Source: a virus
Lineage: Duplodnaviria > Caudoviricetes
Virus record (IMG/VR): IMGVR_UViG_3300021400_000091
Coordinates: 24,421-88,420 of that record
Direction: 5' to 3' (one strand)
Length of the DNA stretch: 64,000 bases
Shown here: in pieces, positions 1,216-64,000 of the stretch
Position numbering within the stretch: the stretch's first letter is position 1
How the letters are laid out: every line of letters starts with the position of its first letter
The notes under the pieces: model-generated
The model's input: only the letters and a program-made list of their open reading frames with translations
What the model was told of the DNA's origin: nothing
Database searches by the model: none
Made by a program: the position numbers and the translations under genes

Positions 1216-1602
1216 TTATTTTATTATATTTAAAACAAGAGAAATAGTTAAAGCAATACCAAGAGCTATTGCTGTGTATTTCATAGTATTATATTTTTTA
1301 TTCAGAGTATTATGAAGACTTTCTTTACTTGCAAGCGCACTCTTTGTATCCTTAACTATTTTCTCTTGTTCTTTTATGTATTCAGCTTGATTATTAATAA
1401 TACTATCTTGTGCTTCAGTTATTTTTAACAAATACTTACGCTCAATAAGTTTTTTATTTATTTCACGAACTTCTGCTATTGTTACTGTTATAGTTGTATC
1501 AGCGTTTTGAGTACTCCCCGTGGGGAGAAGGTTCATTGACCAACTCTCTAAACAATATAATAGCACTGTCGTTAGTAATATAATCAATCTGTGCAACTTC
1601 AT
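1216..1602 (-). CDS. Membrane/secreted coiled-coil protein, putative spanin-like lysis component
   Basis: N-terminal hydrophobic signal, coiled coil and C-terminal TM helix. Overlaps the upstream gene by about 100 nt, downstream of the endolysin. Confidence 0.5.
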   Translation of the reverse strand: MKLHRLIILLTTVLLYCLESWSMNLLPTGSTQNADTTITVTIAEVREINKKLIERKYLLKITEAQDSIINNQAEYIKEQEKIVKDTKSALASKESLHNTLNKKYNTMKYTAIALGIALTISLVLNIIK

Positions 1603-1789
1603 TTGTCATAATGTCTTTATAAACAATTATAGAATTTTCATCATATAGTATTAATTCTCTCAATGAATCAAGTTTTAGTTCTACATCTCTATTACTAATA
1701 CTATTAGTTTTATATGTGTCACATATAACACCAACACAAAAACATATTGCAACACATATTATTATAGTAATTAATAATTTTTTATCCAT
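1499..1789 (-). CDS. N-terminal TM protein, putative i-spanin-like
   Basis: TM segment LLITIIICVAICFCVGVIC; lies directly after the endolysin and overlaps the next gene. Confidence 0.5.
   Translation of the reverse strand: MDKKLLITIIICVAICFCVGVICDTYKTNSISNRDVELKLDSLRELILYDENSIIVYKDIMTNEVAQIDYITNDSAIILFRELVNEPSPHGEYSKR
1517..1527 (+). repeat. CCCGTAGAGGG-family element, degenerate (CCCGTGGGGAG)
   Basis: 3 mismatches; lies in the overlap of two genes. Confidence 0.45.
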
Positions 1790-2234
1790 CTCTTAAATCT
1801 TTTAATCTTACAAACCAACTATAATTAAACTTACCAGTTTGTGGAACATTTAATGTTTTCTGTGCAAGTTTAATTGCCGCACTTACTCCCATATTAACTG
1901 CTGTTTCAAACAACTGATAAGCAATCTTTTCAGATCTCATTTCGTCTAAATGTAGAGCATCCCAATAATTCTTTTTATAAATTCTTTCTACTTCTTTAGT
2001 AACTATATCGTTATTTTCTAATAATTTGTTTATAGTTTTAACTTTACTCATATCAGAACTTGTATTACCTTTAATACTAGATTTAATCCTATCTATCTCT
2101 TTCCACATTATACTAGTTGAGTGAAATCTTCTTGCAATGCCTTTATAGGTTTCTCCTCCGGCATCGTCTTTGTCATTAGCATATCCACCCTCATAAGCTA
2201 ATACTTTCTTAAGTGCTGGTCTGAATGAAGCCAT
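1782..2234 (-). CDS. Endolysin, glycoside hydrolase family 108
   Basis: EGGYANDKDDAGGETYKGI motif and AVNMGV...LAQKTL segment characteristic of GH108 lysozymes. Confidence 0.9.
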   Translation of the reverse strand: MASFRPALKKVLAYEGGYANDKDDAGGETYKGIARRFHSTSIMWKEIDRIKSSIKGNTSSDMSKVKTINKLLENNDIVTKEVERIYKKNYWDALHLDEMRSEKIAYQLFETAVNMGVSAAIKLAQKTLNVPQTGKFNYSWFVRLKDLRDG

Positions 2235-62533: not shown

Positions 62534-63033
62534 TTTGATTTTCTTTTATATTTACCACCACATTTATAAACATTTTGCATAGGTTGTATTCTATTATAAT
62601 ATGTAGGTCTAACTAAAACTTTAGGTTCAAATTGTGCAGGAGCTTGTCTAACTGTCTGAACATTACCCATTGTACTTGCACCTATAGCAGATTTAACTAC
62701 AGAACCTATACCACTACTTACTCCACTTATTACATCATTTGTATCTTGAATTCCCCATGCTCCAAGTTTTCTCTTACCTCCAAGAGGCATTAATGTAACT
62801 CTATCATAATAAGAATCTACAACATCTTGACTACCATTAATTGCATTTGCTAAATTAGCAGCAGTTGTTAAATTGTTTTGTTCTATTTGTTGTCTTTCTT
62901 GTTCTCTCTGTTGTTTCTTTTGCGCATTAGCACCAATAATACTTCCAATAGTATTACCTATTAAAGATACGCCAGCACCAATTAAACTACCAAGAAAGGC
63001 TTTATTTCTTTGATTTCTTTTAACTTTTCTCAT
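62530..63033 (-). CDS. Small virion cargo/pilot-like protein
   Basis: Gly/Ala-rich amphipathic FLGSLIGAGVSLIG segment followed by a Q-rich coil. Confidence 0.7.
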   Translation of the reverse strand: MRKVKRNQRNKAFLGSLIGAGVSLIGNTIGSIIGANAQKKQQREQERQQIEQNNLTTAANLANAINGSQDVVDSYYDRVTLMPLGGKRKLGAWGIQDTNDVISGVSSGIGSVVKSAIGASTMGNVQTVRQAPAQFEPKVLVRPTYYNRIQPMQNVYKCGGKYKRKSK

Positions 63034-64000
63034 CTTCTTATTTTAGTTAAAGAACATTCAAAACTTTCAAAATTAATTTTATTTTCGTTAGTTGTATTAA
63101 CTACAAATGTAAACACAAAATAATTACCAAACATTCTACTTTCTTTACCATTAATATTAACTAATTTATTCATATTAAAATATCCTAGTTCAAAATAAGG
63201 ATAATTAGTTCTAAATTTATTTGTAGCATTATCATTATCATATGTATCAGTTCGTTTTAAAACTAATTGACCAGTTCTACATTTATCAGATACTACATAT
63301 AGATAATTACCACTTTCTTCCACATATCTTCCCTCTACGGGCAAATTAATAAAATCTATTACAGCTAAGTTAGCAATATCAGTTATTCTAGTAAACTTGT
63401 AACTAAGATATTCTAAAAACTTAATTTCATCATAAGAATAATTTACAATTATAGAAAATTGACTATCAACAAATTTATTTGAATTAAAATGTCCAACTCT
63501 AATTTTATCTGTGTTTACTACAAATATTCTATCTTTAGTATATGCAAACCATGCAGGATTATTATAATCGTGCATAGAAACAAAACATCCAAGTTTATAA
63601 TTAAAACTAATTGTTTCTATAGTATCACCATTTTCATATCTAATTAATAATCTACTTCTTTGTTTATCATCACCAAATCTAATATTCTTTGGTTTTATTA
63701 GTTTAAGTCTTGCATCTATATCTTCACTTAAAACTTTTGGACCTTCTTTACTTAATGCAAAGAAATGATTAAAATCATTATTAAACCATATATAACCAAA
63801 ATCCCCAGCAATAGCAGCTCGTCTTTCTTGAAGACCACCAAAACCAAGTTCTGTATTAAACAACTCAGTATATCTAGATTCAAATATATCTTTTTGGTCT
63901 ACTTCTACAACTCCACCATTACTAGTAAGTCTATCGTTAAAATCAAATTGGAATAATGAATGTTCAGTATGTACTAGAAATATATTTCCAATAGCACATA
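63030..64000 (-). CDS. Tail protein (stabilisation/muzzle-like), C-terminal part; 5' end outside window
   Basis: Frame is open to the window edge (...IFLVHTEHSLFQF...ELFNTELGFGGLQ...TISFNY...FVSMHDY); beta-rich; synteny with cargo genes. Confidence 0.65.
   Translation of the reverse strand, partial: CAIGNIFLVHTEHSLFQFDFNDRLTSNGGVVEVDQKDIFESRYTELFNTELGFGGLQERRAAIAGDFGYIWFNNDFNHFFALSKEGPKVLSEDIDARLKLIKPKNIRFGDDKQRSRLLIRYENGDTIETISFNYKLGCFVSMHDYNNPAWFAYTKDRIFVVNTDKIRVGHFNSNKFVDSQFSIIVNYSYDEIKFLEYLSYKFTRITDIANLAVIDFINLPVEGRYVEESGNYLYVVSDKCRTGQLVLKRTDTYDNDNATNKFRTNYPYFELGYFNMNKLVNINGKESRMFGNYFVFTFVVNTTNENKINFESFECSLTKIRR
63331..63341 (-). repeat. CCCGTAGAGGG element, exact
   Basis: In tail gene; reads LPVEG. 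Confidence 0.95.

Follow-up and report, generated by a model that had tools for sequence, protein, structure and literature searches.

A family-wide, strand-wise spaced DNA word at conserved stations in Intestiviridae crAss-like phages

Why does a phage genome of 29% GC carry one GC-rich word again and again, on both strands, within genes as well as between them? The question is raised by the genome of an IMG/VR virus (IMGVR_UViG_3300021400_000091, here G000; 88,420 bp, with contig ends that overlap by 107 bp, indicating a circular assembly), of which the 64,000 bp from base 24421 to base 88420 were analysed in detail and are referred to below as the window. The word is the 11-mer CCCGTAGAGGG, present in 12 exact copies in the window (six on the + strand and six on the - strand) and in 14 exact copies in the whole genome. 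It is a family-wide, station-bound, strand-wise spaced signal in the Intestiviridae, including the prototype crAssphage and the cultured phage crAss002; these three properties had escaped the original prediction. The virus that is most abundant in the human gut belongs to the Intestiviridae crAss-like phages, whose replication, packaging and DNA protection are largely unknown. We conclude with high confidence that the word acts in cis as a DNA signal of this family, is selected as DNA, is strand- and orientation-specific, and is private to the phages.

Spelling of the word and selection on DNA

None of 100 dinucleotide-preserving shuffles of the window contained any match to CCCGTAGAGGG. Alignment of the 56 exact copies from G000 and four relatives extends the conservation past both ends of the 11-mer: position +11 is A in 56/56, position -1 is C or G in 55/56, pyrimidines occupy position -2 in 54/56 and position -3 in 55/56, and a purine is found at position +12 in 53/56. 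The conserved word thus exceeds 11 nt and is approximately the 16-mer YYS-CCCGTAGAGGG-AR. A scan of G000 with this 16-mer gives 14, 1, 2 and 4 sites at 0, 1, 2 and 3 mismatches, respectively; shuffles of five genomes give no match at two or fewer mismatches and 0-0.6 per genome at three. Sites of G000 with up to two mismatches are found nine times on the + strand and eight times on the - strand. The word is asymmetric in its centre (GTAGA) and in its flanks; a single copy can form at most a 3-bp CCC/GGG stem, and position -1 (C or G) is without an evident covarying partner. The original prediction had listed 12 exact copies and five variants in the window: all 12 were found at their coordinates, and the five variants are real degenerate copies of the 16-mer, with one mismatch (34551), two (20578 and 43318) or three (1517 and 29173), the last of which had been placed at 29174 and actually starts one base earlier. 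Its count of four intergenic exact copies was roughly right: the copy at 5515 lies in no open reading frame (ORF) of at least 60 aa, and those at 13180, 14036 and 34699 lie only in short ORFs that have no homologues.

The 190 sites of eight genomes comprise 73 sense, 79 antisense and 38 intergenic ones; 152 (80%) are within ORFs, and the intergenic share is an approximately threefold enrichment relative to the ~6% of non-coding DNA. Among the exact copies, all six sense ones read CCC GTA GAG GGn, encoding PVEG, usually after N-[LFS], and the antisense ones encode PSTG in four cases and SLYG in two, which confirms the three readings originally proposed. The frame that would read TAG is used by none of the 73 sense copies. 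The codons that the word imposes are rare in G000 (CCC, 4.9% of Pro; TCC, 2.1% of Ser; CTC, 2.3% of Leu; ACG, 2.3% of Thr; GGG, 4.5% of Gly): the probability of the codons given SLYG is 1.7e-6, yet the SLYG site in a 4,521-aa gene for an RNA polymerase (RNAP)-like protein is exact in 5/5 genomes. Codon-preserving shuffling reduces the 14 observed copies to a mean of 2.03 (maximum 3 in 300 shuffles), the residual ~2 being those located in unshuffled DNA. Homologues in relatives keep the site: the 11-mer is exact at the orthologous position of the ligase gene in 5/5 genomes, and it is likewise exact in the 4,521-aa gene (copy at 46017) in 5/5, where the flanking residues are unrelated (~30% identity). 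A single position of the family-B DNA polymerase (PolB) gene is read in two frames, as IPSTGS in G000 and as IPLRGS in G001, from the same DNA word. At position 12737 of G000, substitutions in an existing P-x-T-G created the word, with no insertion or deletion. In the related genome G005, a longer flank (…CGGAGTGC) is written into proteins as SLYG-RSA and PSTG-GV; judged by such comparisons, it is the proteins that follow the DNA spelling of the lineage and not the reverse. Many of the coding copies fall within indel-rich loops.

Because the codons are rare, the copies are lost upon codon shuffling, one PolB position is read in two frames and one copy originated by substitutions only, we conclude that selection acts on the nucleic acid and not on the protein, which had been proposed from the window and is strengthened by retention at orthologous positions. 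The converse explanation, that selection favours PVEG and similar peptides at the protein level, draws on the constant PVEG reading of sense copies, with its usual preceding residues, and on the seven PVEG peptides of the proteome; however, six of these seven share the one rare-codon spelling, half of all copies are antisense or intergenic, and orthologues read the same DNA in different frames, with residues such as the SLYG-RSA of G005 following the DNA. A peptide-level motif was therefore rejected, and the chance that it is correct is close to nil.

Stations, family-wide occurrence and spacing

The five genomes compared are fully collinear in gene order, with no rearrangement at the sites, and can be placed on a common map on which stations of the word are shared and their orientation is kept. 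Five of the stations, and one close inverted pair, are shared by 5/5 genomes; the rest of the map shows turnover, in that a site of matching orientation lies close by at a place that is not orthologous. The same regularity holds at greater distance. Eighty relatives were retrieved by means of their ligase (42-61% ligase identity), and for five stations around the ligase gene (A to E, Table 1) counts were taken over the loci that cover the interval concerned: in total, 286 sites are on the expected strand and five on the other (71-80 loci). Inversions or other rearrangements at the sites were considered and rejected, given the collinearity and given that no contig joint coincides with a site in four ruminant-gut runs; apparent loose ends at 13190, 13204 and 27117 are contigs of other copies that align across the shared word.

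In five IMG/VR genomes of ~90 kb, the 11-mer has 11, 14, 5, 1 and 12 copies, compared to 0 for the reversed control. The 8-nt core CCCGTAGA is invariant across the clade, and the flanks differ from lineage to lineage and are uniform within each genome: there are 25-34 sites of TKYTCCCCCGTARAGGAA in the human phage cr3_1 (Intestiviridae, Crudevirinae, Diorhovirus), 28-31 sites of GACYCCCCGTRGAGGATGGAG in the prototype crAssphage strain ZA (Carjivirus), and 25-28 sites of ATTCCCCCRTARAGGAG in the cultured crAss002 (Churivirinae), and in each of these three genomes these words are the most over-represented 10-mers. The genome of crAss001 (Steigviridae) does not contain CCCGTAGA anywhere. It has an over-represented 10-mer of its own, CTCCAGAAGG (accession MH675552; 12 exact copies versus 0.2 in shuffles), which is on both strands, alternates in 8/12 cases (not significant) and reads APEG or SPEG; it could represent a comparable signal of a second crAss family, or else an effect of codons or peptides. 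The source lineage is a ruminant-gut crAss-like phage, and the same signal is present in human-gut relatives; near-identical or related DNA occurs in 20 public runs from 11 studies (goat, bovine and generic gut metagenomes). The cultured crAss002, with its 28 sites, offers an experimental handle on the word; the lineage-specific spelling could help to classify crAss-like contigs, and the GC-rich copies may be behind local breaks in assemblies or artefacts of coverage.

Five Bacteroidales genomes (Segatella, Prevotella and Bacteroides), taken as host-type stand-ins, contain 18-105 copies of CCCGTAGA versus 39-148 of the reversed control, and 1-11 copies of the 10-mer versus 2-9 of its reversed control. 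Because it is not enriched in these genomes, the word is regarded as private to the phages, and mimicry of a host Chi or uptake word was rejected. These results, together with conservation in relatives, bear out the original prediction of a phage-specific cis-site system. Its statement that no description of the element was known also stands as far as the searched literature goes: searches for the exact word and for the topic in Creative Commons-licensed PubMed Central (PMC) papers and bioRxiv (main texts) found no description of the word in crAss-like phages.

Neighbouring sites differ in orientation in 144/190 cases (eight genomes). With up to two mismatches allowed, 76/97 neighbour transitions alternate in five genomes, and 16/17 in G000 (p = 0.0005); with exact copies alone, alternation (32/49 transitions) is not significant. 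In a rotation test, in which the spacing of each strand is kept and one strand is slid along the other, 135.6 +/- 4.4 alternations are obtained versus the 144 observed (P = 0.04). Because rotation barely lowers alternation, we take alternation to be mainly a by-product of even spacing on each strand, and strict alternation was rejected as the primary rule. Same-strand gaps have a coefficient of variation of 0.51 or less in 11/16 strand sets, and same-strand spacing is significant versus random placement in 10/16.

Same-strand repulsion over kilobases is shown by the distances between neighbours: under 1 kb, 30 neighbours are inverted and none direct, followed by 32 inverted and 10 direct at 1-2.5 kb, 52 and 15 at 2.5-5 kb, 20 and 19 at 5-8 kb, and 10 and 2 over 8 kb. 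This short-range pattern is the opposite of that of ordinary repeats, since 12-mers less than 1 kb apart in the same genomes are direct in 573 cases and inverted in 181, and 14-mers are direct in 126 and inverted in 23. A general, genome-wide avoidance of direct repeats as a hazard of RecT or single-strand annealing was rejected on the same counts, although longer repeats might yet be subject to such avoidance. A hard-core exclusion model that takes the observed minimum gap of each set as its minimum distance fits 14/16 strand sets; only the - set of cr3_1 and the + set of crAssphage are more regular, with smaller maximal gaps, than the model, by which an upper limit on same-strand gaps (a need for coverage) is hinted at. 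Intervals in which a - site is followed by a + site have a smaller median than those of the reverse order in 8/8 genomes (2,060 bp versus 6,209 bp in G000), and crAssphage ZA, cr3_1 and crAss002 have close pairs of either polarity. Coordination between the strands is indicated by the rotation test at P = 0.04 only.

Sites and genes of the window

The sites of the window are collected in Table 1. PHROGs matches confirmed PolB, primase and ligase as hosts of copies, and the 4,521-aa and 2,646-aa hosts are orthologues of crAssphage genes annotated as an RNAP subunit and an RNAP-associated protein. The close inverted pair sits at the convergence of two gene arms and is kept in 5/5 genomes, with spacers of 28-148 bp. 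Folded as RNA, the element that its two words close has a predicted energy of -71.5 kcal/mol (z = -8.8), and the word has probably been reused here in a bidirectional terminator or stabiliser.

Table 1. Copies of the word in the window, the fold-back element, and stations around the ligase gene in relatives (positions in the window unless given relative to ligase)
Feature	Position	Strand	Context and occurrence
Degenerate copy, 3 mismatches to 16-mer	1517..1527	+	+ station common to G001, G002 and G005
Exact copy	3234..3244	-	Sense (PVEG) in conserved 145-aa ORF 2954-3391; station exact in G003, degenerate in G002
Exact copy, intergenic	5515..5525	+	Between - strand ORFs 4950-5477 and 5547-6080; + station common to G002, G003 and G005
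Exact copy, effectively intergenic	13180..13190	-	Just 3' of ORF 12799-13161, followed by hairpin with 11-bp stem
Exact copy	14036..14046	+	In 97-aa homologue-less ORF, just upstream of four tRNA genes
Exact copy	19023..19033	-	Antisense (IPSTGS) in PolB, inside indel-rich loop
Degenerate copy, 2 mismatches	20578..20588	+	In 462-aa gene orthologous to crAssphage SNF2-like ATPase; station in 5/5 genomes, degenerate
Exact copy	25279..25289	-	Antisense (SLYG) in primase; station in 5/5 genomes (3 exact, 2 with one core mismatch)
Exact copy	27125..27135	+	Sense (LPVEG) in ATP-dependent DNA ligase
Degenerate copy, 3 mismatches or 1-nt deletion	29173..29183	-	In dNMP-kinase gene; near - station of G002 and G005
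One-mismatch copy, CCCGTAAAGGG	34551..34561	-	Left arm of conserved close inverted pair
Exact copy	34699..34709	+	Right arm of inverted pair, 148 bp from left arm
Fold-back element	34535..34725	.	Closed by the two inverted words
Degenerate copy, 2 mismatches	43318..43328	-	Sense in 4,521-aa virion RNAP-like gene; station common to G003
Exact copy	46017..46027	+	Antisense (SLYG) in 4,521-aa RNAP-like gene
Exact copy	49193..49203	-	Sense (PVEG) in 2,646-aa gene; - site at nearby, non-orthologous places in relatives (turnover)
Exact copy	60570..60580	+	Antisense (PSTG) in 988-aa structural gene; station common to G003 (one mismatch) and G001
Exact copy	63331..63341	-	Sense (PVEG) in 277-aa ORF of tail region; station exact in G002 and G005, degenerate in G001
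Station A	~ -8 kb from ligase	-	54/71 loci; other strand 1
Station B	~ -6.2 kb from ligase	+	64/74 loci; other strand 0
Station C	~ -1.4 kb from ligase	-	64/79 loci; other strand 4
Station D	In ligase	+	60/80 loci; other strand 0
Station E	~ +2.5 kb from ligase	-	44/80 loci; other strand 0

The surroundings of two intergenic copies (5486-5560 and 13140-13220) are alike over ~50 bp beyond the word; the likeness covers the 3' ends of small ORFs (both ...KEEEDK*) and the hairpin that follows, and points to a gene end having been duplicated locally, or copied by gene conversion, together with the word. The four tRNA genes downstream of the copy at 14036 occupy 14203-15016 (56.6-70.6 bits); the Rfam scan detected these four only, and the word matches no Rfam family. 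At the start of the rightward arm, from 7435 to 15000, the ORFs have no tblastn match in six related genomes, except for ORF 11201-11920 and a few that match G003 only; this region is hypervariable and probably early. PolB (17826-20120) is a single ORF in G000, G002 and G003 and is split into two in G001 (54269-57096) and G005 (55467-58868), and in cr3_1 (MT774381, 59108-62473) there are two coding sequences annotated as DNA polymerase with an extra ORF between them. The split is near the indel-rich loop that bears the word, and could be due to an intron, an intein or a homing-endonuclease insertion.

G000 encodes a replication-recombination module consisting of PolB, a DnaG-type primase, an SF1 helicase of RecD/Dda type, a PD-(D/E)XK exonuclease, a ligase, a Mu Gam-like protein and, as a weak match, a RecT-like annealing protein, in addition to nucleotide-salvage genes. 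The exonuclease (PHROG 298), the RecT-like protein (weak), the Mu Gam-like protein and a conserved DUF932 protein, encoded in the intervals 3357-4355, 21526-22500, 31098-31862 and 32286-33308, together form a Red-like set for recombination in what looks like a strictly lytic phage. The word is found alongside the PolB/RecT/exonuclease/ligase/Gam module; crAss001, whose replication module is different, lacks the word. Presence/absence profiling versus crAss001 did not single out a reader of the word. Two proteins were examined further: for a conserved 205-aa protein, the atlas lead to small-terminase families is weak (score 0.75, below the reliability level of the tool), and its structural model, with a predicted local distance difference test (pLDDT) score of 76, has no PDB match at E <=0.001 and matches only uncharacterised crAss proteins in BFVD; a 264-aa protein has no atlas lead, and its AlphaFold2 model (pLDDT 54) is too poor for use.

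Candidate functions and known systems

The most likely reader would be a phage-encoded protein that co-evolves with its sites, because every lineage spells the word in its own way, over 16-24 nt, around the invariant core; and because the word is kept 20-34 times per genome at the price of rare codons and changes to protein loops, it must have a role in a central DNA transaction. We tentatively favour, as possible rather than probable, the reading that the copies are strand-specific DNA-processing marks for the phage replication-recombination module. At each copy, one strand would be nicked or synthesis would be started, and the mark would be used by PolB, the DnaG-type primase, the SF1 helicase, the RecT-like protein, the PD-(D/E)XK exonuclease and the ligase. 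Nick sites were among the options originally offered and are still in play. If the job is done strand by strand and has a reach of a few kilobases, each strand would need a mark every ~5-10 kb; redundant neighbours on the same strand, being harmful or not maintained, would decay, which would produce the even spacing of each strand with alternation as a by-product, and intergenic inverted pairs would double as hairpins. The independence of orientation from transcription (73 sense versus 79 antisense) speaks for such marks. Several considerations weigh against them. Both strands are used, and about equally, with sites on both in all eight genomes, whereas the described nick systems are one-stranded, and nicks at both sites of inverted pairs 28-150 bp apart would approach double-strand breaks. 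The exclusion model, which fits most strand sets, needs no upper gap limit. The co-occurrence with the module rests on crAss001 as the one word-less outgroup genome, and Pfam and PHROGs searches with 30 protein queries gave no site-specific nuclease. Site sets at three mismatches may hold a few chance matches, and the genomes share ancestry, so that statistics across them are not independent. The one-strand versus two-strand difference might reflect the fixed-end genomes of the nick phages as opposed to permuted headful genomes here: crAss002 is predicted to package by a pac-type headful mechanism, with permuted genomes and a single pac site (PMC8042965).

It is rather unlikely that the word is instead a phage-private Chi-like mark, at which a translocating helicase-nuclease (for example, the SF1 helicase with the PD-(D/E)XK exonuclease), having degraded DNA until it meets a correctly oriented word, would change over to a recombinogenic mode and so supply RecT; host DNA, having no word, would be degraded. 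We know of no phage helicase-nuclease with sequence-regulated activity; the conserved within-genome spelling of 16-24 nt is far beyond that of known Chi sites (5-8 nt), and the lack of enrichment in host-type genomes implies that host RecBCD or AddAB is not the reader. A Chi-like mark would nevertheless account for an orientation-specific site with an 8-nt invariant core, and for orientations that are each evenly spaced, independently of the other, as if loss from any end were bounded; it is also consistent with the genes encoded (SF1 RecD/Dda-type helicase, exonuclease, RecT-like protein, Mu Gam-like end protector and nucleotide salvage) and with the headful, permuted packaging predicted for crAss002, by which ends would fall anywhere (PMC8042965). 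A stronger version, that the word is a 'self' code of the crAssphage family, with the SF1 helicase and the PD-(D/E)XK exonuclease destroying word-less DNA and switching at the word, is distinctly unlikely on the sequences at hand; if true, the host chromosome would be turned into nucleotides, word-bearing DNA would be sent to RecT-dependent recombination and replication restart, and the recurrence of each orientation every few kilobases around a permuted genome would be explained. Also unlikely is that the copies are sites of an architectural or packaging protein (a virion IHF/HU-like or small terminase-like protein) that would organise or condense the DNA or mark it as self for packaging. A long asymmetric word with lineage-specific flanks is what a DNA-binding protein that co-evolves with its site would have, virion proteins of IHF/HU type are encoded by relatives, copies are dispersed over the whole genome much as self-marking uptake words (DUS/USS) are, and the 205-aa conserved protein has its weak atlas lead (0.75) to small-terminase families; yet that lead is below the reliability level, the fold search gave no terminase-like fold, pure binding need not avoid same-strand neighbours or keep orientation at stations, and crAss002 is predicted to use a single pac site (PMC8042965).

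A transcription signal, that is, a promoter, pause or terminator for the virion RNAP (vRNAP) or for host RNAP with a phage factor, is very unlikely. The length, asymmetry and copy number of the word are like those of phage single-subunit RNAP promoters, there is the ~3-fold intergenic enrichment, and inverted pairs form strong hairpins at the convergence of gene arms; vRNAP promoters are, moreover, unknown as far as the available parts of the literature go. However, orientation is unrelated to gene direction (73 versus 79) and 152/190 sites are inside genes, and the phi14:2 paper, in its available part, reports vRNAP transcripts without a common upstream motif and host sigma70-like promoters for middle and late genes. 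The vRNAP loading or promoter sites offered in the original prediction are disfavoured on these grounds. Highly improbable, finally, is a selfish or neutral repeat (REP-, MITE- or RPE-like), or a word propagated by biased gene conversion, in either case without function for the phage. Such a repeat would explain flanks that are homogeneous within a genome (concerted evolution), two intergenic copies that are alike over ~50 bp, the many coding copies in indel-rich loops, and the GTAG that the word has in common with REP elements. It would not be expected to keep orthologous positions and orientation across genomes with 42-61% ligase identity, to arise by substitutions only as at 12737 of G000, or to be coding in 80% of sites in collinear genomes with no rearrangement at the sites; nor was a transposase-like gene (RAYT- or IS200-like) found among the annotated genes of cr3_1, ZA and crAss002 or the scanned proteins of G000, a survey that did not extend to every ORF.

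Comparison with known systems separates the word from most of them. A classic partition site, one of the options offered for the window, is disfavoured because the site is asymmetric and not palindromic as parS is, and no ParB was seen in the annotations checked (a non-exhaustive set). From promoters of phage RNAPs, whether T7-like or of the N4 hairpin type, the word differs in that 152/190 sites are inside ORFs and orientation is mixed. The stoperators of Cluster A mycobacteriophages are asymmetric 13-17-bp sites in ~24-30 copies, also in coding DNA, with one phage protein as reader; stoperators are co-oriented with transcription, whereas the orientation of the word is unrelated to it (73 sense versus 79 antisense), and the phage shows neither a repressor nor a lysogeny module. 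Single-strand initiation (ssi) or primosome assembly sites (PAS) and primase sites are likewise strand-specific signals, and the phage has its own DnaG-type primase; ssi/PAS are needed on each strand that is copied from single-stranded DNA and are hairpins of 60-100 nt, primase sites being 3-5 nt, whereas single copies of the word are 16-24 nt with no evident conserved pairing and only paired copies fold strongly.

The DNA uptake sequences (DUS) of Neisseriaceae and uptake signal sequences (USS) of Pasteurellaceae are self-marking words of 10-12 nt that occur in either orientation, lie chiefly within genes in frames that are tolerated, arise by point mutation and, as inverted pairs, serve as terminators. 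Origin by point mutation and inverted pairs are seen here too, but the carrier is a phage and not a competent bacterium, the density is 1 per 3-5 kb versus ~1 per kb, and conserved stations, conserved orientation and same-strand repulsion are not features of DUS/USS. Chi is likewise an orientation-dependent short core (8 nt invariant here) in many copies that makes sense for a DNA-tracking enzyme. It is the word of the host, enriched in the host genome; the word described here is not enriched in the five Bacteroidales genomes, has a spelling of 16-24 nt, and is used equally in both orientations, evenly spaced and not skewed with replication.

The nick words of T5/BF23, phiKMV-like and tf/LUZ24-like phages are asymmetric, 9-20 nt long and dispersed regardless of genes, with about 14 copies per 46 kb in tf, all 14 on the top strand; they are at similar positions among related phages, their lineage spellings are attributed to co-evolution of nickase and site, and their function is unknown (PMC3517423). 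In every phage nick system described there, all sites are on one strand and the genomes have fixed ends (PMC3517423). The word of the Intestiviridae differs in that both strands are about equally used and each is evenly spaced, and in being longer and known from sequence alone. In its asymmetry, its similar positions in relatives and its lineage variants it is like them, and by genomic signature the nick words of T5, phiKMV-like phages and tf are its closest precedent.

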